DNA of 39,176 nucleotides from Anaerolineae bacterium (GTDB taxonomy: Bacteria; Chloroflexota; Anaerolineae; DUEN01). The stretch's first letter is position 1. Every line of letters begins with the position of its first letter. The DNA is taken from assembly GCA_034432955.1 (NCBI GenBank), contig DAOUBB010000023.1, positions 1 through 39,176 of the forward strand, given 5' to 3'. The notes beneath the pieces were generated by a model that saw only the letters and a program-made list of their open reading frames with translations, did not search any database and had not been told where the DNA came from. Positions 1 through 35,976 of this stretch are shown one piece after another. A program made the position numbers and the translations under genes.

Positions 1-101
1 GCCTCCGCAGGCTAAATCCAGTCGCCGTAGGGCGACTTCGCCGACGTTGCCCGCAGTTTCTAACGGCTGGGCCTCCAGCAACACCCAAGGGGGAGACCAC
101 C
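1..101 (+). repeat. Copy 1 of a ~101-bp direct repeat, truncated at its 5' end by the window edge. It contains hairpins GTCGCC-GTAG-GGCGAC, GCCCG..TGGGC and CCTCC..GGGGG, and sits 27 nt upstream of the cupredoxin-like gene.
   Basis: Matches 22936-23036 at 99/101 positions, read directly from the sequence. The differences are at position 23 (C vs T) and position 42 (C vs T). Confidence 0.9.
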
Positions 102-127: not shown

Positions 128-505
128 ATGACCCTAGACAAAGTTCTCGTCACCCTTGGCGGGCTGGCTGCCATTGGGTTCATCGTCTGGTTCTTCTGGC
201 TGGGCGAAAGGAAGGGCGTGCGGGCCACCCTGACCAGCAGCGGCTATCAAGAGGCGATGGTGCTGGTTAAGGGCGGCTACACACCGGACGTGATCCTCGT
301 CGAGCGCGGCAGGCCGGTGCGCCTGAACTTCGTCCGCGCGGAGTCCGCCTCGTGTTCGGAGATGGTGCTCTTCCCCGATTTCAGGAAGAGCGCCCAACTG
401 CCGGAAGGGGAGACCGTCCCCGTCGAGCTCATGCCCGACAGGGCCGGCGAGTTCGAGTTCCAGTGCCAGATGGGAATGCTGCGAGGAAAGCTGATCGTGG
501 AATGA
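128..505 (+). CDS. Cupredoxin-like small membrane-anchored copper-binding protein (PF13473-like).
   Basis: 125 aa with an N-terminal TM helix. It has a beta-rich C-terminal domain with SCSEM and FQCQMGM Cys/Met motifs. A GGAGG RBS lies 8 nt upstream of the ATG. Confidence 0.6.
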   Translation: MTLDKVLVTLGGLAAIGFIVWFFWLGERKGVRATLTSSGYQEAMVLVKGGYTPDVILVERGRPVRLNFVRAESASCSEMVLFPDFRKSAQLPEGETVPVELMPDRAGEFEFQCQMGMLRGKLIVE

Positions 506-627: not shown

Positions 628-1710
628 TTAGCGCCGGTAGCGCACCTCCACCGGCACGTAGTCCGTGTCATACCCGAAGTATCGCGGGCCCACCAGGGCC
701 AGGCCGGCCGGCGTGCGCCACTTCTCGTGGCACGGGATGCCCAGGATCACGACTCGAAAACCGTAGCGCAGGCTTTCCGTCGTGATGGGCTGGCCGGTCT
801 CGGCGTCCAGGACGGCGATCAGGTCGGGCACGGTGACGACGATCCGGCCGTCCACCGCCGCCACCAGATGCTCGTTCTGAAAATGGAGCTGCATGCGCTG
901 GCCAGCATATCCGTCCATCCCCTCGAAGGTGGCCTCCCCGCGCGCGAAGCCGGTCTCCGTCCGCCGCTGCACATCCGTGATCTTGCCGCGGAAAATCTCA
1001 AAACCGCCGGTGACCTCCTGCACAGCCGCGATCACGTCGCGGTTGGTGTGACGTGCCTCCCGGATGGTACGCCCGATGCGCTCCGCCAGCGTGATGGTGC
1101 CCGGCACGCTGCACTCCTTGAGCTGGCGACCGGTCGCCGCGTAGCAGGCGATGAGAGCGGTGCACCCCATGTCAATCGTGATGCTGCGGGCCAGCCTCTC
1201 TGTCCAGTGATTGTCAATGGTGTTCAGGATCGCGCTGTTCCCCTTCTCGTCCGCCATGGCAAACGGCGTGGCCGAGATGCCGTACAGCGTATGGGTCACC
1301 ATGGGAATCTCAGGAAAGGCGCGGCCCATGCCGTCGCAGTCCACCATCGGCAACCCCAGCCGGGCAGCCACCGTGATCGGGATGGTCGAGTTGAGCCCTC
1401 CCGCCTCGATGGACATGGTGGCGTGGATCTTCCTGCCGAGGTAGTCCTCCAGGGCCCGAAATGCCTTGATCGCCTCATCCCCCTGCGGCAGCTTCTCCAC
1501 CATGACGGTGGGAGCCCCCATCATGGCAGCGGGCACGATCAGATCGTCGTCGCCGATCTCATCCAGGGAAAGCAGGGTCACCGGGCCATACTTCTCGATG
1601 GCATGGATCGCCATGAGCTTGCCGATGTAGGGATCGCCCCCGCCGCCGGTGCCCAGCACGGCGGCTCCCAGGGCCAGGTCTTCCACGTTCTGAACGTCCA
1701 ACTTTCTCAT
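628..1710 (-). CDS. DUF917 (PF06032) family protein, paralog A.
   Basis: GTGGGGDPYIGKL N-terminal motif and strong co-linearity with the neighbouring paralog. Start chosen at MRKLD (ATG at 1710), preceded by AGGAGGAGG; the longer ORF upstream is read-through. Confidence 0.8.
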   Translation of the reverse strand: MRKLDVQNVEDLALGAAVLGTGGGGDPYIGKLMAIHAIEKYGPVTLLSLDEIGDDDLIVPAAMMGAPTVMVEKLPQGDEAIKAFRALEDYLGRKIHATMSIEAGGLNSTIPITVAARLGLPMVDCDGMGRAFPEIPMVTHTLYGISATPFAMADEKGNSAILNTIDNHWTERLARSITIDMGCTALIACYAATGRQLKECSVPGTITLAERIGRTIREARHTNRDVIAAVQEVTGGFEIFRGKITDVQRRTETGFARGEATFEGMDGYAGQRMQLHFQNEHLVAAVDGRIVVTVPDLIAVLDAETGQPITTESLRYGFRVVILGIPCHEKWRTPAGLALVGPRYFGYDTDYVPVEVRYRR

Positions 1711-1748
1711 AAAACGCCTCCTCCTGGGAAGGACAGCCCTCCGAGGTC

Positions 1749-2966
1749 TCAGATAATGCCTCCTCCCTTCCGCTTGGGCAAGGGATGATATTCCACCTGG
1801 TAACCGAACGCCTGGGGGCCGACCACCGCCAGCGCCTCCGGGGTGCGCAGCTTGTCCGAGCATGGGATGCTCAACACCGTCACGCGAAAGCCATAGCGCA
1901 GAAGCTCCGTGGTGATCGGCTCGCCACTGTCGTCATCCACGATGCAGATCAGGTCGGGGACGGTAGCCCGGACCTCACTGGATTGGGATGCCCCCTGTGC
2001 TGGGGTGCAGAGGTGCAGGGGTGATTCTCCCCCGCTCCTCTGCTCCCTTGCTCCTCCGCTCCCCTGCTCCCCTGCTCCCTGGCTCCCCTGCCGCACCCAG
2101 GCGATCAGGTTCTCGTTCTGAAACTCGATGAGCATCTCCTGGCCAGCGTACGAATCCATCCCGGCGATGGTGGCCGTGCCGCGGGCGAAGCCCCCCGTAG
2201 TGCGCCGGGCCACGTCGGTGAGCTTGCCGCGGAAGATCACCTGGCCGTCGCTCAGCTCCAGGATGCCCTGAATGGGATCCTGCCCCTGCCGCCGCGCGGC
2301 CCGCACTCGATCGCCGATCGCTTTGGCCAGGGAGAGGGTGTGCCACACGGCGGTGCGCTTCACCTGGGCGCCCGTCATCGGGGCCATGGCAAAGGTGGCC
2401 GTGCACCCCATCGCAATCGTGACCGAACGCGCCAGGCGTTCGAGCGTGCGGGCGTCCTGCGCCCGATCGAACAGGACCACGTTGCCCTTCTCATCGCACA
2501 GCACGGCCGGCGTGGGATCCACGCCGTAGATGAAGAACGAGGTCATGGGGATCTCGGGGAAGGCGCGCCCCATCCCGTCGGCGTCCACGACGGGCAGGCC
2601 GACCTGCGCGGCCGCGATCAGCGGGGCCACCGAGTTCCCTCCGCCGATCTCCACCGAGATCAGGGCGTCGGCTCGCCGGCCCAGAAACGCCTCGAGAGCT
2701 CGCAACGCGCGCACCTCCTCATCGCCCCGTTCGAGCTTCTCTACGCCCACCGTCGGGGCGCCAATGCCGCCTACGGTGATCACCAGCGCGTCGTCCGGCA
2801 GATCCTCAGGCGGGATGATGGAAACGCGGCGCCCCTCTTCCAGCAGGCAACGCGTGCGGAGCTTGCCCAGGTACGGATTGCCACCCCCTCCGGTGCCCAG
2901 GATCCCCGCCCCGATCGCAATGGACTCCAGGTCTTCAATGCTTAACATCCATGTCGGGCTTCTCAT
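1749..2966 (-). CDS. DUF917 family protein, paralog B, carrying a ~43-aa low-complexity insertion. Start may be 2966 or 2948.
   Basis: GTGGGGNPYLGKL motif; aligns along its length with paralog A. The insertion lies between FQNENLIAWV and TVPDL. GGAGG sits 4 nt before the ATG at 2966. Confidence 0.75.
   Translation of the reverse strand: MRSPTWMLSIEDLESIAIGAGILGTGGGGNPYLGKLRTRCLLEEGRRVSIIPPEDLPDDALVITVGGIGAPTVGVEKLERGDEEVRALRALEAFLGRRADALISVEIGGGNSVAPLIAAAQVGLPVVDADGMGRAFPEIPMTSFFIYGVDPTPAVLCDEKGNVVLFDRAQDARTLERLARSVTIAMGCTATFAMAPMTGAQVKRTAVWHTLSLAKAIGDRVRAARRQGQDPIQGILELSDGQVIFRGKLTDVARRTTGGFARGTATIAGMDSYAGQEMLIEFQNENLIAWVRQGSQGAGEQGSGGAREQRSGGESPLHLCTPAQGASQSSEVRATVPDLICIVDDDSGEPITTELLRYGFRVTVLSIPCSDKLRTPEALAVVGPQAFGYQVEYHPLPKRKGGGII
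2040..2100. repeat. Microsatellite-like tandem TGCTCCC / GCTCCCC(T) tract, about 6 units, inside DUF917-B. On the minus strand it encodes an (A)(G/R)EQ(G/R)SGG x2 repeat.
   Basis: Seen directly: ctgctcccttgctcctccgctcccctgctcccctgctccctggctcccc. The corresponding loop is absent from paralog A. Confidence 0.7.
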
Positions 2967-4650: not shown

Positions 4651-5649
4651 TCAGCGATTCGCTGAGGGTTGGCCGCTGACCGCTACCAGGTGACAGGCCA
4701 CGAGGTGGCCCTGGCCGATGTCCAGGAGAAGAGGCACGCGCTCCATGCAGGCGCGGACCTTCGGGGCCGGGCAGCGCGGCGCGAAGGGACAGCCTTGTAT
4801 CCGGCCGGCCAACGTGGAAATCTCCCCCTGCAAGACGATCTGCTCCCTCTGATGGTCCGGGTCAGGCTCCGGCATGGCCGACAGCAGGGCCTGCGTGTAC
4901 GGGTGCTGAGGGGCGTCGAAGATCTGATCCACGGTCCCCAGCTCCACGATGCGCCCCAGGTACATCAGGGCCACCCGGTCGCACATGTAGCGGATCACGC
5001 CCAGGTCATGCGAGATCACCAGATAGGTCAGGTTCAGGCGCTGTTGCAGATCCAACAACAGGTTGAGGATCTGCGCCTGAACGGAGACATCGAGGGCGGA
5101 GGTGGGCTCGTCCAGGATGATGAGCCTGGGCTGCAAGGCCAGCGCGCGGGCGATGCCGATGCGCTGGCGCTGGCCGCCGCTGAACTCGTGGGGATAGCGA
5201 TGCAGGTGGTCCTCGGTCAGACCGACCAGCCGCGCCAGCTCCCGCACGCGTGCTTCCAGCTCGGCCCCTCGCGCCAGGCGGTGGATGATGATCGGCTCGG
5301 CGATGATCTGCTTTACCTTCATGCGGGGGTTCAACGACGAGAAGGGGTCCTGGAAGACGATCTGCATGTGCGCGCGATAGCCGCGCATCTCCCGCTCGGA
5401 CAGCCTGAGCACATCCCGTCCCTCGAAGAGGACCTGGCCTGACGTGGGCTCGATGAGGCGGAGGATCAACTTGCCCAGGGTGGTCTTGCCCGATCCGGAT
5501 TCACCCACCAGCCCGAACGACTCTCCCGCGTAGATCTCCAGGTCCACGCCGTCTACGGCGCGAATGTCGTCTACATGGCGACGGAAGAGGCCGCCGCGCA
5601 CGGGGAAGTATTTGGTGAGCTGACGGACCTGCAAGAGAGGACCGCTCAT
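4651..5649 (-). CDS. oppF: Oligopeptide/dipeptide ABC transporter ATP-binding protein (OppF/DppF-like).
   Basis: Walker A GESGSGKTT, signature LSGGQRQR and Walker B ILDEPTSALD, plus the C-terminal oligopeptide-ABC extension. Start chosen at MSGPLLQV; this overlaps oppD by ~36 nt, and the alternative start is 5712. Confidence 0.8.
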   Translation of the reverse strand: MSGPLLQVRQLTKYFPVRGGLFRRHVDDIRAVDGVDLEIYAGESFGLVGESGSGKTTLGKLILRLIEPTSGQVLFEGRDVLRLSEREMRGYRAHMQIVFQDPFSSLNPRMKVKQIIAEPIIIHRLARGAELEARVRELARLVGLTEDHLHRYPHEFSGGQRQRIGIARALALQPRLIILDEPTSALDVSVQAQILNLLLDLQQRLNLTYLVISHDLGVIRYMCDRVALMYLGRIVELGTVDQIFDAPQHPYTQALLSAMPEPDPDHQREQIVLQGEISTLAGRIQGCPFAPRCPAPKVRACMERVPLLLDIGQGHLVACHLVAVSGQPSANR

Positions 5650-9096: not shown

Positions 9097-10827
9097 TCAG
9101 TCTTCAATCCAGAGCCGCCAGAAGTCCACACTGATGTCGCCGAAGTACTTGAAGCCTTTCACTCGCTTATTGTAGGCCACCAGGTTCGGCAACACATAGA
9201 TGGGGATGCCGGGGATGTCCTCCATGATCATGCGCTGCAGCTCTTTCAGGATGCGCGCCCGCTCCTCTTCATCCACAGTGCGGCGCACCTGTTCGATCAA
9301 GCTATCCACCTCAGGGTTCTTATAGAAGTCGCACGACTGGAAGCTGCCGCCGGTGGGCCGATCCCAGGTGGGGGAATACCACTGCTCGCGGAACCACACG
9401 TCGGGCAGCGGCCCACTGTCCACGAAGATCATGGAGATGTCGGGGCCCGTCTCCGGCTTCCCACAGGCAGCCACCATATCCGGCCACACTTTAGGGATCA
9501 TGTTGAGCTTGATGTTGAACTTGGACAACTGGTCCAGCAAGATGAGGCCGGCCTGCTCCTCGAAGGTCAACCCCGTGACATAGACGAAATTGAGCTCGAT
9601 GCCGCCATCTTTGTACGGGGTCTGGTTCAGGGCCTCGCGGGCCTTCTCCAGATCGTACCGGTACACCGGCTGCACGTTGGGGTCGTGATAGGCGATGCCG
9701 TCCGGGATGGGGCCGACCAGGAGCTTGCCCAGCCCCCCCAGCGACTGAATGTAGCCCTCGTAGTCGAAGGCATACGCCAGGAACCGCCGGAAGTTGACGT
9801 CGGCCGTGGGACCTTTCTGGTTGTTCAGCTTGAAATAGCCGGCCAGCGTGCCGTAGTTGACCTCGCAGACGTACCCCGGCGTGTTGTTGATGAGCTCCAC
9901 GTCTTCGGTGCCGATGGTGTCGGCGAAGTCCACTTCGCCGGCCAGAAGGGCGATCCGCCGCTGCGGCGTATCCCGGATAATCCGCCAGGTGAACCCGGCC
10001 AACCGCCCCCGGCCTGGCCAGCCCTGCCAGTAGTCCGGCACAGCCTCGAGCGAGTAATGGTCCCCGATCTGCCATTCTTTGATGACGAACGGCCCAGAGC
10101 CGGCCTCATGCTCGATCAACCATTTCTCGCCCTCATCCCCGCCTACTTCATGATCCTTGACCACCTTGGGGTTCATGATCCACTGCTCCTGATACGCGAG
10201 CAGGCGGGGGAAATCGCCATACGGCTCGTTCAAAACCATCCGGACCGTGTAGTCATCCACCACTTCAATGTTCTTTTCCTCCAGCAGGCCTAGCAGGAGG
10301 TTCGAGCGCTGTCGTTGAAAGCGCAGGGTGCGGCCGTAGGAGTACTTCACCGCCTCAGCGGTCACAGGGGTTCCGTCGTGAAAGACCGCCTTGTTCGTCA
10401 GATGGAAGACCCACTCGCGGGCGTCATCGGATCCCTCCCAGCGCTCGCACAGGCAGGGCTCGATCGGCCGCGGGAACCCACCCTCAAAGCGGAAGAGGCG
10501 GTCGTAGAGCTGCCTCCCCACCGCGCCGATGGAGTAGTCCGTGCGGTCCGAGGGGTCCAGGGTAGGGACGTCCTGGCCGCCGCTGTAGATCAACCACTGG
10601 GGTTCGATGGCCGCTGGGGCCTCTGGCTTAGGCGTGGCAGTCGCGGCTTCCGGCGTGGCCGGCGCAGCGGGTGTGGCTGGGGCAGGGGCGGGAGCGCAGG
10701 CGGAAGCGATCGCCTGGAGTCCGACCAGCCCCGCCACGGCTGCTACGCCTTGCAGAAACTCGCGGCGGCTGATACTCCCCTGACGATACTGCTCCCAAAG
10801 TGTGTCAAGACTGCGGGATGCCATAGT
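9097..10827 (-). CDS. ABC transporter substrate-binding protein, family 5 (peptide/nickel), with a Tat signal.
   Basis: SRREFLQGVAAVAG twin-arginine motif, an Ala/Pro-rich linker and an SBP_bac_5-like body (~570 aa). GAGGAGGAG RBS before ATG at 10827 (MASRS..). Confidence 0.85.
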   Translation of the reverse strand, partial: TMASRSLDTLWEQYRQGSISRREFLQGVAAVAGLVGLQAIASACAPAPAPATPAAPATPEAATATPKPEAPAAIEPQWLIYSGGQDVPTLDPSDRTDYSIGAVGRQLYDRLFRFEGGFPRPIEPCLCERWEGSDDAREWVFHLTNKAVFHDGTPVTAEAVKYSYGRTLRFQRQRSNLLLGLLEEKNIEVVDDYTVRMVLNEPYGDFPRLLAYQEQWIMNPKVVKDHEVGGDEGEKWLIEHEAGSGPFVIKEWQIGDHYSLEAVPDYWQGWPGRGRLAGFTWRIIRDTPQRRIALLAGEVDFADTIGTEDVELINNTPGYVCEVNYGTLAGYFKLNNQKGPTADVNFRRFLAYAFDYEGYIQSLGGLGKLLVGPIPDGIAYHDPNVQPVYRYDLEKAREALNQTPYKDGGIELNFVYVTGLTFEEQAGLILLDQLSKFNIKLNMIPKVWPDMVAACGKPETGPDISMIFVDSGPLPDVWFREQWYSPTWDRPTGGSFQSCDFYKNPEVDSLIEQVRRTVDEEERARILKELQRMIMEDIPGIPIYVLPNLVAYNKRVKGFKYFGDISVDFWRLWIED

Positions 10828-17513: not shown

Positions 17514-20015
<2,502 letters not shown>

Positions 20016-20035
20016 CTTTCAAACCTCATTCGCTC

Positions 20036-20437
20036 CTAAGCCTGGGCCTCATCGCCCCAAGTCAGAAATTTCGTGGGGGTGATCTTCAGCAGCAGCGTGT
20101 ACGTCGGATCCGTGCGAATATCCCAGTCGTACTTGCGCAAAAAGAGATCAGCTACCTGCTCGCGCTCGTCGCCCATAGCCGGGCTCGCGATGCCCTCGAT
20201 GATCACCACGTTTCGGCCGTCCTCCAGAGACACGGCCACCTGGGGGTTCTTCGCCAGGTTGCGCGCCTTGCGGCTGGCAGAGCTGATGCAGATAAAGATA
20301 TACCCTGCGTCCCACACGAACCACACCGGCGACAGGTGCGGTGCCCCGTTGGGCCGCACGCTGGCAACCCAAATGATCTCCGCCTCTTGCAGCCGGCGGC
20401 TGACGCGCTCTGTTGGCTGTGTTCCTCCTTGACTCAT
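20036..20437 (-). CDS. Pyridoxamine 5'-phosphate oxidase-like FMN/F420-binding split-barrel protein.
   Basis: 133 aa with a PNPOx-like fold pattern (WVASVRPNGAPHLSPVWFVWD...). Stop is 20 nt upstream of the clpC start on the same strand. Confidence 0.6.
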   Translation of the reverse strand: MSQGGTQPTERVSRRLQEAEIIWVASVRPNGAPHLSPVWFVWDAGYIFICISSASRKARNLAKNPQVAVSLEDGRNVVIIEGIASPAMGDEREQVADLFLRKYDWDIRTDPTYTLLLKITPTKFLTWGDEAQA

Positions 20438-20554
20438 ACCCCTCCGTTTGTTAAAACTAGCACAGATGCCATCTGGGCCTCGTGGGCACCCCTACAATCT
20501 AACACAACGCTAACAGATCACGCCCTTGCCATCCCTATGCCTACCCCCACGGTG

Positions 20555-21634
20555 TCAGTCCAGGACGAGGTTCCCAAAGGTCGTCGGCACCCCTGGACGA
20601 AAGTTGGGAGATCCGGTCAGCATGGTGTCCTGCCCGGCAGACCCCGGTTGATCATTGTCCAGCAGTTGGACGGAAAACCCGAACGCGCTCCCGACCGTCG
20701 GCTGGCGATGGAGCACCGACCAGGGGATCGCCGCCTCCAGCGAGTATCCGTCGCTGCGCTGGCGCGCGGCGACGATGATCGCCTGGTCCCAATCCGCGCG
20801 CCGCTGTGGCCTCCACACGACCGCCTCCGGTGGCAGTGCGGCGAAATCGCCGGGGGAAAGGCCGATCTGGTAATCGTCCTCGTTGGCTACTGCTGTGTCA
20901 AAGTCCTCGGCCAGGGCGGCGTCTAGCCAGACGATCAGGCCATCTCCCCACTCCATGCGGTCGCCCCGTTGCGTCTGGACGTGGACATCGTCCAACACGC
21001 GCGCCGCCAGGTACAGATAACGCTCATCCCATTGGGCATACACGGTGCCGGCGAGATCGGCCATCCCTCCATAGGCCTCCGCTCCACTCAGGATATAGCT
21101 CATATCCTGCCCGGCTATGCCGTCCCACTCGCCCAGTTCGCCGTCGAGGCGCAGCGGTATCGTCAGATGGCGCGCGTACAAGTCCGCCCCGTTGCCCTCG
21201 CGATAGGGGCCGGCGTAGGGTGCCGGCGTAGGGGTCGTCGTGTCTGTGGGAGTGGGGCTGGGTGTCGAGGTCATGGTGGGCGATGGCGTGTCCGTCGGAG
21301 TGCTGGTCGGCACAGCAGTGTCGGTGGGCGTTGCCGTAGGGCTTTCCGGCGTCGGCGTAGGCAGCACGGCGACCACGATCAGGGTAGGAGTTGGCGAGTC
21401 CGTCGGCACGGGTGACGGCCGTCTGGCAGCCGGGGTGAAGGCGAGCCGGGTGAGCGCCCGCGTGGGTGAAAGGCCGCTCTGTCGCGTCAGAGGCCCGGAG
21501 GGAGCCTGCACGGAGGGGACGCGCCGCTGCAAAATGCCTAGCGTTGAGCTCGCGATCAGCCCCGCAACGACGCATAACGCCAGCGCCAGCACAAAGCCGA
21601 ACAGCAAAGGGATTCGGCTGCCGTCACCGCCCAT
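20555..21634 (-). CDS. Membrane-anchored protein with a PT-rich linker and a C-terminal CBM9-like/DOMON-like carbohydrate-binding domain.
   Basis: N-terminal TM segment, a ~90-aa Pro/Thr/Ser linker, and CBM9-like motifs (DGELGEWDG, WDERYLYLAARVLDD, YSLEAAIPW, FGFSVQLLDND). Starts 26 nt downstream of the eRF1-like gene. Confidence 0.6.
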   Translation of the reverse strand: MGGDGSRIPLLFGFVLALALCVVAGLIASSTLGILQRRVPSVQAPSGPLTRQSGLSPTRALTRLAFTPAARRPSPVPTDSPTPTLIVVAVLPTPTPESPTATPTDTAVPTSTPTDTPSPTMTSTPSPTPTDTTTPTPAPYAGPYREGNGADLYARHLTIPLRLDGELGEWDGIAGQDMSYILSGAEAYGGMADLAGTVYAQWDERYLYLAARVLDDVHVQTQRGDRMEWGDGLIVWLDAALAEDFDTAVANEDDYQIGLSPGDFAALPPEAVVWRPQRRADWDQAIIVAARQRSDGYSLEAAIPWSVLHRQPTVGSAFGFSVQLLDNDQPGSAGQDTMLTGSPNFRPGVPTTFGNLVLD

Positions 21635-21660
21635 CCGCTCGTTGTCTCCTTGGGCCCTCC

Positions 21661-22740
21661 TCAGTAGCGCAGGAGGGCCCCGATGTGCCCTGCTCGCTGC
21701 AAGGCTTCACTCCCGCCCACGATCGTGACATCCAGCCCCTGCTGGATCGCGTGATGGATCAGATGGTCCACGGCATCGGGCAGGTAGGCCATATCACCAC
21801 CACAGAAGGAGCATCGCTCGACTGGCTCGACGGTCATATAGCCGCACCCCCGGCAGAGATAGGCCGGAGCACGGTACCCCTGTTCGACGACAAGGCGGCG
21901 CAACCGGCCTTCATGAAGCGCCCCGAGCGTGTCGGCCAATCCGATCACCGCAGCCCTTCCCTTGGCCGCAGTGGTGATCATATCGTTCACCAGCGCGGAT
22001 TCGCTCTGAGCTAAATAGGTCTGCACCACCTCCAGCGCCCGCTCGTTCACCTCAGCCGGCGAAGCGTCTTTATCCACGCTGATGCGGCCGATCACCCGTT
22101 CACGCAGCGCTGACGGGAGCAGCTCTTCAAACAGGGCCACATTGGTCTCCGTTCCGCCCAGGATCAGGCGATCGCATTTGTGTTGCCGGCAGAAGGCCTC
22201 GGTCAGCTCGGCTGCCTCGCGCAGGTTGCGCTGAGCCGTCACGTCCTCGTGCCGCTGGTAACGCTGTGCCGCCCAACCGCCGGCCCGATGGCGCTTCACA
22301 TCCTCGCCCGAGATCTCGGTGGCCTCTTGCAATGCCCCCATGTAGAAGACGAAAAGACGGGCTCCCCCACGGTTGACGAGCGCGACCGCGTATCGCTCCA
22401 TGATGTCGGTCAACGGCTTGACGTAGGGCCGATCGCCCACAAAAGCCAGATCCTCGCGGGGGAGCAGGAGAGGGAACGCTCGCCAGAAGCCCGCGGCCTC
22501 ACAACTGAAGCAGGCTACGGCCCTTCCCTGCCAGTTATATTCCAGGTCAATATAGCGTTCCACTCGTGCCAGATCCCGCGAATCCGCCTGAGCGGATACG
22601 CTTTCCAGCAGCCGGCGCAAAGCCAGCTTGTACTTCTCGCGCGTTCGTCGGTGCGGATCTACATTCAGATAGAGACTTAAGACGGAAGCCCCATCTACCC
22701 GAAAGTTGACCAATTCCTGAATCGCCCGTTCGTCAATCAT
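21661..22740 (-). CDS. Full-length eRF1/aRF1/Pelota-superfamily protein (bacterial eRF1-like, baeRF-type) with the catalytic loop reading GGW instead of GGQ, and a C-terminal CxxC...CxxC zinc ribbon.
   Basis: KRHRAGGWAAQRYQRH aligns to eRF1 KKHGRGGQSALRFARL. The C-terminal ...AGHIGALLRY aligns to eRF1 ...FGGIGGILRY. Start at MIDER (ATG 22740) with a GAGGAGG RBS; the longer ORF to 23058 is read-through across the intergenic repeat. Confidence 0.65.
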   Translation of the reverse strand: MIDERAIQELVNFRVDGASVLSLYLNVDPHRRTREKYKLALRRLLESVSAQADSRDLARVERYIDLEYNWQGRAVACFSCEAAGFWRAFPLLLPREDLAFVGDRPYVKPLTDIMERYAVALVNRGGARLFVFYMGALQEATEISGEDVKRHRAGGWAAQRYQRHEDVTAQRNLREAAELTEAFCRQHKCDRLILGGTETNVALFEELLPSALRERVIGRISVDKDASPAEVNERALEVVQTYLAQSESALVNDMITTAAKGRAAVIGLADTLGALHEGRLRRLVVEQGYRAPAYLCRGCGYMTVEPVERCSFCGGDMAYLPDAVDHLIHHAIQQGLDVTIVGGSEALQRAGHIGALLRY

Positions 22741-22935
22741 GCTACCTCCTCGTTCAAACGGCGCCGAAATGAGTGCCAGGATGCGGGGACCCGGCGCTTG
22801 AGGCTTACAGTTCGGCAGTGTAGGCGGCAGACACACGACCAGGGCAACAGGATCAAAATCGGCTGATGGGCAGTGCGGCCAGGCTCCGCTACCGTTACCT
22901 GGCGACTGGAAGTCACGGCAACGCCTGCCAAGCCT

Positions 22936-23036
22936 GCCTCCGCAGGCTAAATCCAGTTGCCGTAGGGCGACTTCGCTGACGTTGCCCGCAGTTTCTAACG
23001 GCTGGGCCTCCAGCAACACCCAAGGGGGAGACCACC
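22936..23036 (+). repeat. Copy 2 of the ~101-bp direct repeat, intergenic between rluA (stop 23089) and the eRF1-like gene (start 22740). It is antisense to both genes.
   Basis: 99/101 identical to 1-101. A GCCTGC-ctcc-GCAGGC hairpin at 22932-22947 overlaps its 5' end. Confidence 0.9.
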
Positions 23037-35732: not shown

Positions 35733-35810
35733 GAGCCAGCCTCCAACAGAGTTTGCCTGGACAGGCCTGGCCCATCCAGGCAGAGAAGCCGGCCAGCTCA
35801 GCGGCGACTA

Positions 35811-35936
35811 AGGTCGGCCTTCGCCGACCTCAGAACCGCCGCAGGGCGGTTTCGCCAGGCGTAGCAGGCGGTTTGAACCGCCGGGCGGCTTCCCCTGGGG
35901 GGAGAGCCACTCCCCGCCCCCTATGAGGGGGCGGGG
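35811..35936 (-). promoter_or_regulatory. Cluster of four to five consecutive GC-rich stem-loops in the 244-nt spacer between the sugar binding-protein gene and the first permease.
   Basis: AGGTCGGC-cttc-GCCGACCT; GAACCGCC-gcag-GGCGGTTT; GGCGGT-ttga-ACCGCC; CCCCGCCCCC-tatga-GGGGGCGGGG; an alternative GGGGAG-agcca-CTCCCC. Confidence 0.6.
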
Positions 35937-35976
35937 CGGGAGATAGGAGCCATCGCAGCAAGTACTTACCAGAGCA

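Follow-up and report, generated by a model that had tools for sequence, protein, structure and literature searches.

The window analyzed here, a stretch of 39,176 nucleotides that constitutes a whole contig, carries two copies of a 144-nt repeat that occupies five or more unlinked sites between genes of this Anaerolineae genome. The repeat is probably a low-copy, lineage-restricted, non-coding and non-autonomous dispersed element, organized as a REP/REPIN- or BIME-like mosaic and MITE-like in size. A MITE- or REP-like mobile repeat had been one alternative in the initial annotation of this DNA, and it fits the multiple unlinked intergenic copies, the sharp ends, the unrelated flanks and the absence of the repeat from relatives.

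A repeat search of the window aligned positions 1-101 with 22936-23036 in the same orientation at 98% identity, and the two mismatches in 101 positions that the initial annotation had counted could both be located. Each is a C/T difference; the one at 22/22957 changes GTCGCC to GTTGCC within AGTCGCC-gtag-GGCGACT and, as had been described, turns a C-G pair of this hairpin into U-G, while the one at 37/22972 lies in a loop. The limits of 22936-23036 given for the repeat were too narrow, as the full unit measures 144 nt (22893-23036), reaches 43 nt further 5' than 22936 and runs from CGTTACCTGG to GAGACCACC. These ends are sharp in an alignment of all copies, with similarity ceasing exactly at CGTTACC... 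and ...GACCACC and the flanks beyond being unrelated. The GCCTGC-ctcc-GCAGGC hairpin, previously listed as an extra feature at the 5' end of the second copy, accordingly belongs to the element. This second copy (copy B, forward strand) is a complete unit, and the first (copy A, 1-101, forward strand) contains only element positions 44-144 because the window is a whole contig that begins within it; the suspicion that copy A was longer was borne out by a complete 144-nt version in another assembly, GCA_964426405.1. Copy A ends 26 nt before the ATG at 128 of a cupredoxin-domain gene (128-505, forward strand), in keeping with its reported position just upstream of that gene. The unit has a GC content of 64%, similar to that of the host, and contains no T-runs. 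Three frames are open across it, none with an ATG, and its contexts differ from copy to copy; a coding sequence was therefore rejected, in agreement with the earlier view of the element as non-coding. The template and variable repeats of a diversity-generating retroelement were likewise rejected, as the copies differ by C/T changes, not by adenine-specific ones, and both lie outside coding regions.

GCA_964426405.1 is a second assembly of the same genome, contributing loci L001, L002, L005, L006 and L039 to this analysis; L001 is 100% identical to the window over aligned stretches of 8.7 kb and 1.7 kb, and L002 shows a single mismatch over 11.4 kb. At least four full copies (A, B, C and E) are present in it, each at a locus unlinked to the others, together with a degenerate copy D. 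The complete copy A (L001:9831-9974) is in the sense orientation; the stop codon of a copper P-type ATPase gene lies 11 nt ahead of it, and the cupredoxin gene follows after 26 nt. Copy B corresponds to the second copy of the window and lies antisense upstream of an eRF1-like gene, copy C (L006:10719-10862) is between an RluA-like gene and a glycolate-oxidase-like gene, and copy E (L039:4564-4707) is between two MTTB-family methyltransferase genes. Copy D (L005:2277-2371), reached through the one match returned by a protein search with the three open frames of the element, lacks 24 nt through a deletion and is decayed at its 3' end; next to it lies an inverted piece from the 3' end of the element. 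Two further copies occur in the Anaerolineae MAG H63_643 (L003:7119-7262, in the sense orientation, and L004:5084-5227). The initial count of two copies thus gives way to five or more for this genome, plus the two of H63_643, a close relative, a census that suits the mobile-repeat alternative. The six sites are all flanked by co-directional genes, with the element sense at two (A and H63_643 L003) and antisense at four. Copies A, C and E are identical at 144 of 144 positions, copy B has three private substitutions relative to the consensus common to them (element positions 37, 66 and 85), and each H63_643 copy has two. This star-like pattern is as expected from recent spread from one source; the three identical copies could alternatively come from gene conversion.

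Beyond these genomes, matches to the full unit were scarce. The core 20-mer of the element, scanned against one genome per species, was found only in H63_643, and exact 20-mer matches in the species-representative MAG numbered only two. An exact core 21-mer had no match in JGI metagenomes, where an end-anchored gapped pattern returned two matches with unrelated interiors that were dismissed as chance. Viral contigs contained none of three 20-mers, phage genomes gave no BLAST match to the element, and searches of viral, JGI-metagenome and plasmid sequences revealed no longer parent element with the same ends. BLAST and Smith-Waterman comparisons over the examined loci identified no more diverged copies save a weak, intergenic cluster of GC-rich tetraloop hairpins at 35775-35912 of the window (forward strand), which is colinear with the 144-nt unit and aligns to it locally with a score of 57, against 49-51 for the next-best unrelated windows; we treat this cluster as a candidate diverged relative and leave it out of the family. 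Another small family of repeats was also observed, a perfect GC hairpin of 10-11 bp (CTCCCCGCCCCYtatgaGGGGGCGGGG) with about 50 nt of common context, which is 79-91% identical across three unrelated intergenic regions of the same genome (window 35907-35940, L001:3521-3572 and L025:9989-10041).

Comparison of orthologous sites revealed two positions at which the element is present in one genome and missing from another. At the eRF1-like locus it is absent from 13 of 13 related contigs, and relatives whose eRF1-like protein is at least 90% identical lack the element and retain the promoter that flanks copy B. Downstream of a gene encoding a 685-aa protein, H63_643 carries the element (L003), and relatives at 82-88% protein identity have a spacer of 15-25 nt. 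The window genome shares the flanks of H63_643 at this site (identical at 32/32 positions on the left and 76/79 on the right), and an unrelated 56-nt filler (L025:5619-5674) takes the place of the H63_643 element (L003:7119-7262). Filler and element could reflect an insertion accompanied by a deletion, a swap, or two independent insertions; as the polymorphic site holds this filler and not an uninterrupted target, we infer insertion there rather than see it. At the MTTB site, the element is present in both genomes (L039 and L004) between identical flanks. Genes of the two genomes are 92.7-93.6% identical around the polymorphic site and about 98.5% identical around the shared MTTB site.

Several features of the surrounding DNA were also recorded. 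The 56-nt filler carries a small hairpin of its own (CGGCTT-gtaca-AAGCCG). Copies A and E sit between short arrays of heptamer repeats, located at L001:9790-9830 and 9975-9984, L004:5228-5290 and 5035-5083, and L039:4504-4563 and 4708-4764. These comprise six GATTTCR repeats on one side and AAAATCC on the opposite one, and five CRCGAAG plus four CTTCGYG repeats that form 46-nt inverted arms; at copy A, the final nine codons of the copper ATPase gene come from the heptamer array. A similar heptamer-arm palindrome occurs without the element at L025:9452-9560.

The 5' part of the unit is a two-hairpin module of 57 nt (22898-22954, element positions 6-62, forward strand as for all hairpins below). 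Its first hairpin, H0 (22902-22916, GCGACT-gga-AGTCAC, 15 nt), contains a mismatch that reads C.A on the plus strand and G.T on the minus strand, and its second, H1 (22931-22948, AGCCTGC-ctcc-GCAGGCT, 18 nt), has 7 bp. Immediately downstream lies H2 (22955-22972, AGTTGCC-gtag-GGCGACT, 18 nt; positions 20-37 of the window in copy A), the 5' arm of which can alternatively pair with 22901-22910 in a long-range stem of 10 bp (element positions 9-18 with 60-69). The hairpins reported earlier as GCCTGC-ctcc-GCAGGC and GTCGCC-gtag-GGCGAC were thus both found. A 3' hairpin region (22984-23014) can adopt either GCCCGC.GTT-tct-AAC.GC.GGGC (element positions 92-115) or GCTGG-gcct-CCAGC (109-122), and the available copies fit both alternatives.

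Folding analysis distinguished the full unit from the piece originally described. The 101-nt piece folds no better than shuffled sequence (z from -0.3 to -0.8), nor does it on either strand when short flanks are included (z from -0.3 to +0.2); the full 144 nt reach z of -1.8 to -2.7 against shuffles on the plus strand and -0.8 on the minus strand, with two mutually exclusive structures fitting equally well. Neither structure shows a double compensatory change among the six 144-nt copies, in which the stem substitutions are exclusively one-sided changes from G-C to G-U (columns 55, 66 and 118), and shuffle controls equal the observed covariation values. The wobble-preserving substitution that the initial annotation read as a sign of selected RNA structure therefore carries no statistical weight. 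A preference for the plus strand, as might be drawn from the three G-U pairs, was likewise discarded, being cancelled by the invariant C.A (plus) or G.T (minus) position in H0. Neither a sigma-70-like promoter nor an intrinsic-terminator-like site is present in or beside copies A, B and C, and the window contains no tRNA or tmRNA and no Rfam match at gathering score. A permissive Rfam scan of the element gave a sub-threshold match of H1 to CRISPR-DR28 (27 bits against a cutoff of 35), set aside as coincidental similarity to a GC hairpin of 7 bp, and beyond it only miRNA noise.

The 57-nt module has relatives in another phylum. In a BLAST search of plasmids, element positions 5-59 matched unannotated intergenic DNA of Nostoc flagelliforme (83% identity over 54 nt, E 5e-6) and of N. 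edaphicum, and the Nostoc sequence used as a query identified an intergenic element of 130-170 nt in 11 cyanobacterial plasmids from eight genera, with module identities between Anaerolineae and cyanobacteria of 78-83%. The cyanobacterial element consists of two inverted copies of a 57-nt unit in the order H0 (GCGACT-nnn-AGTCGC), a CTACAC-type linker, H1 (7 bp) and TAAA. H0 and H1 covary across 13 units of both phyla, with double compensatory changes at five pairs, of which H1 contributes four of its seven, and H0 covaries with GCGATT/AATCGC in cyanobacterial units. The covariation score of 0.300 was reached by none of 500 shuffles (0.154 +/- 0.021), and controls with slid partners did not exceed 0.095. 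The H0 and H1 hairpins are thus conserved features. As both are palindromic, the covariation applies to DNA as well as to RNA, and since H0 has C.A on the plus strand and G.T on the minus strand, neither strand is clearly favored.

Beyond the module, the elements of the two phyla share an intergenic location, and no transposase was found beside the cyanobacterial plasmid elements examined (from Nostoc, Dolichospermum, Anabaena and others). They differ in architecture, in that the cyanobacterial elements, with two inverted modules and T-runs, resemble bidirectional terminators, H1 plus the T-run scoring as terminator-like on both strands, whereas the Anaerolineae element has one clear module and unrelated 3' hairpins. 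On the minus strand, cyanobacterial units have GTAG two bases from H0; the Anaerolineae unit has GTTG there, and its only GTAG is the loop of H2. A literature search by exact cyanobacterial module sequence returned no matches; these elements may be among described MITEs such as Nezha or Muzha. In Anabaena cylindrica pANACY.04 (L033:1540-1585), the H1 loop holds an extra insert of about 26 nt (CTATTCCTTCGGAACGCTACGCGAAC), a small sequence nested in a hairpin loop.

Classical REPs occur in tens to thousands of copies per genome. BIMEs are intergenic mosaics of palindromic units with fixed linkers that are passively transcribed, affect mRNA stability and serve as recombination substrates. The 144-nt unit is analogous to enterobacterial BIMEs in being an intergenic mosaic of several palindromic units; it has no sequence relation to them, and it is copied as an invariant block, in contrast to BIMEs, where unit number varies by site. 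REPs have been described as short tagged palindromes with G-T pairs located between unidirectional genes, including in Chloroflexi and Cyanobacteria (PMC3733652), and REP/REPIN sequences as GTAG-tagged palindromic repeats (PMC3733652, PMC3116915), the members of the GTAG-tagged superfamily being marked by an unpaired GTAG, or a mildly degenerate version of this tetranucleotide, on one side of the palindrome (PMC3733652). The likeness of our unit to these is considerable: it contains GC-rich, imperfect hairpins of the short kind seen in REPs (15 nt for H0 and 18 nt each for H1 and H2, beside the roughly 20-40 nt of REP units), with tetraloops and with G-T pairs in the stems, all six sites are extragenic between co-directional genes, matching the unidirectional or convergent setting of REPs, there are neither terminal inverted repeats nor a target duplication, inverted unit pairs can form a long stem (element positions 9-18 with 60-69), and in the cyanobacterial versions of the module, GTAG stands two bases away from H0. 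The differences are that the mobile unit is here a fixed 144-nt mosaic and not a palindrome of 20-40 nt or a simple doublet, that the tag beside H0 is GTTG, and that only a handful of copies is seen; given this tag and the low copy number, we describe the repeat as REP/REPIN-like without assigning it to the GTAG-REP superfamily. The defining companion of such REPs is a RAYT (Y1 transposase) gene with the repeats on both sides; none was found in the examined loci or beside the cyanobacterial relatives. A candidate GTAG-tagged REP was observed in H63_643 (L004:1805-1831), a perfect 12-bp palindrome (GTAGGGCAAGCC-tca-GGCTTGCCCTAC) that starts with GTAG and ends with CTAC.

The unit also shares with classical MITEs such as Correia, ERIC and Nezha (PMC3184786) a length of about 100-200 nt, non-coding sequence and stable predicted folds, and it differs from them in lacking terminal inverted repeats and flanking direct repeats at the sites examined. 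Of the filled and empty sites by which MITEs are recognized in related genomes, what is seen here is absence at two orthologous positions in more distant relatives, with the 56-nt filler in place of an empty site between the two close genomes. Its 5' end (CGTTACCTGG) is unrelated to the reverse complement of its 3' end (GGTGGTCTCC), and the flanks of five copies contain no direct repeat indicative of a target-site duplication. The similar subterminal hairpins characteristic of IS200/IS605 elements are not apparent, as H1 on the left is unrelated to GCTGG-gcct-CCAGC on the right. As to the fixed left target of 4-5 nt of such elements, TTAC occurs at element positions 3-6, but the 56-nt filler is not preceded by TTAC.

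The genomic context of copy B is the one point at which the assemblies disagree. Copy B is antisense to the eRF1-like gene (21661-22740, reverse strand; bacterial baeRF family 10, Vms1/ANKZF1-like) and lies between that gene and its promoter, and the disagreement begins at 23036/23037. The window continues past copy B with the 3' flank of the RluA-like gene. GCA_964426405.1 instead places 116 nt containing TTGACG-17-TACAAT after a copy B that has the same three substitutions, and there it is copy C, with the consensus sequence, that comes after the RluA-like gene. Relatives within the 90%-identity cluster of the eRF1-like protein have a homologous promoter-like sequence upstream of the gene and no element, and because they keep this same promoter, the arrangement in GCA_964426405.1 is the syntenic one. 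The last 59 nt are identical in all copies, and the join in the window is either chimeric or a real recombinant between copies B and C. The initial description of the second copy as intergenic and antisense to both of its neighbors accordingly holds for the eRF1-like gene, with the RluA-like flank placed in dispute by GCA_964426405.1. Only 15 nt separate copy B from the predicted -10 box upstream of it, that of the eRF1-like gene, and the reverse complement of copy B would thus belong to the leader of that gene.

Other observations concern the same neighborhood. The promoter-like TTGACG-17-TACAAT has an extended -10 TG (L002:73-101), with homologous sites in relatives (L008 and L011), and in this genome it is separated from the eRF1-like gene by the repeat and about 85 nt of additional sequence. 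On the reverse strand of the window (17514-22740), the eRF1-like gene is followed by genes for a CBM9-domain protein, a PNPOx-like protein and a ClpB/ClpC-type ATPase, and every relative examined shares the order from eRF1-like to ClpB/ClpC, possibly a sign of a conserved neighborhood for ribosome rescue or proteostasis. The assemblies also differ at window 1702-2072 (371 nt) versus L001:11575-11674 (100 nt), where two tandem S-Me-THD paralogues with about 70% identity meet; an assembly collapse or a recombinant is the probable cause.

These findings bear on two readings that concern the second copy and its surroundings. A mis-assembly that created this copy or its context would account for the conflict at 23036/23037, where the rival version matches the synteny of relatives, yet three independent assemblies as well as Logan unitigs contain the repeat, each time between unique flanks, and the substitutions specific to copy B appear in both assemblies of this genome. 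Only the join is thereby in doubt and the repeat itself is sound, making an artefact very improbable. The unitigs (run SRR11582147) end 28-30 nt into the element, reflecting the behavior of a k=31 graph at sequence common to several flanks. The second reading takes the two copies as attL/attR-like direct repeats that bound an integrated or excisable segment, as suggested by their shared orientation 22.9 kb apart in the window. Against this stand at least three further copies on other contigs, giving five or more copies on four contigs, and the lack of an integrase or recombinase among the listed called genes of the segment, where those seen encode transport, hydantoinase, sugar-nucleotide/glycosyltransferase and Clp-type chaperone functions; moreover, the gene order from eRF1-like to Clp ATPase is syntenic with repeat-free relatives, and the right junction of the second copy is itself disputed. 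We consider such a segment almost certainly wrong. The broader proposal of the initial annotation, flanking repeats of a recombination-prone segment, thus retains weak support in that the assemblies join different flanks, and is contradicted by the extra copies where an att-type segment is meant.

Two further readings assign the hairpins a function. The lead interpretation of the initial annotation, a family of structured RNA genes or cis-regulatory RNA elements with a transcribed plus strand and hairpins under selection, is encouraged by the stronger folding of the full unit on that strand (z of -1.8 to -2.7 versus -0.8), by predicted-stem substitutions that are all G-C to G-U there, by covariation of H0 and H1 across phyla and by the sense position of copy A between the copper ATPase and cupredoxin genes. 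It is, however, opposed by the promoter, terminator and Rfam results, by the mixed orientation of the element, which is antisense to surrounding genes in four of six copies, by related genomes that lack it at orthologous sites or have other sequence at one of them, and by the decay of copy D. The 144-nt copies, moreover, lack double compensatory changes and covary no more than shuffles, and the cross-phylum signal comes from palindromes that would covary equally as DNA, with the invariant C.A/G.T position of H0 giving no consistent strand preference. Taken together, these results make an RNA family highly unlikely, although the plus-strand folding (z to -2.7) and the change from C to U opposite G in all three stem substitutions would also suit an RNA role. 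The other reading, a domesticated hairpin cassette kept by selection as a host terminator, insulator or mRNA-stabilizing element, draws on the terminator-like H1 and T-run of the cyanobacterial units on both strands, on sites between co-directional genes near 3' ends, and on the three identical copies. The Anaerolineae version, in contrast, has no T-run and is terminator-like on neither strand, copy B sits just downstream of a promoter in a 5' leader, an odd location for a terminator, and relatives lack the element at the same sites. A domesticated cassette is therefore unlikely.

How a mobile, non-autonomous REP/REPIN- or BIME-like repeat would spread can be outlined from its structure. The repeat would move as DNA through an enzyme encoded elsewhere, for which a single-strand-specific tyrosine (Y1) transposase of the IS200/IS605/RAYT kind is the most likely candidate. 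Y1 transposases recognize hairpins and leave neither terminal inverted repeats nor target duplications, and it is because both are missing here that a hairpin-recognizing single-strand transposase is proposed. No mobilizing enzyme is encoded in the approximately 150 kb examined. The repeat would tend to insert between genes, in some cases within the loop of an existing palindrome, and would then be transcribed passively within host mRNAs in either orientation, where its hairpins could serve as 3'-end stabilizers or weak attenuators, by analogy with REPs and BIMEs. Identical copies would provide homology that may permit real rearrangements. A more ambitious and quite unlikely proposal is that the 57-nt module is the recognition unit of a widespread mobilization system that moves small hairpin cassettes, acting as portable terminators or insulators, into fixed intergenic slots; such slots could often be the loops of existing palindromes, and the system could also replace one cassette by another, which could be what is seen as element versus 56-nt filler.

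For the organism itself, the practical consequence is that the repeat breaks, and probably mis-joins, short-read assemblies, such that gene neighborhoods across it, including the apparent linkage of the RluA-like and eRF1-like genes in the window, should not be relied on without long reads. The finding opens no new mechanism and touches no long-standing question. If our reading is right, it adds a small repeat family to a phylum in which such elements have barely been described, and the sequence and covarying hairpins of the module tie this family to cyanobacterial elements, hinting at a mobilization machinery shared across phyla.
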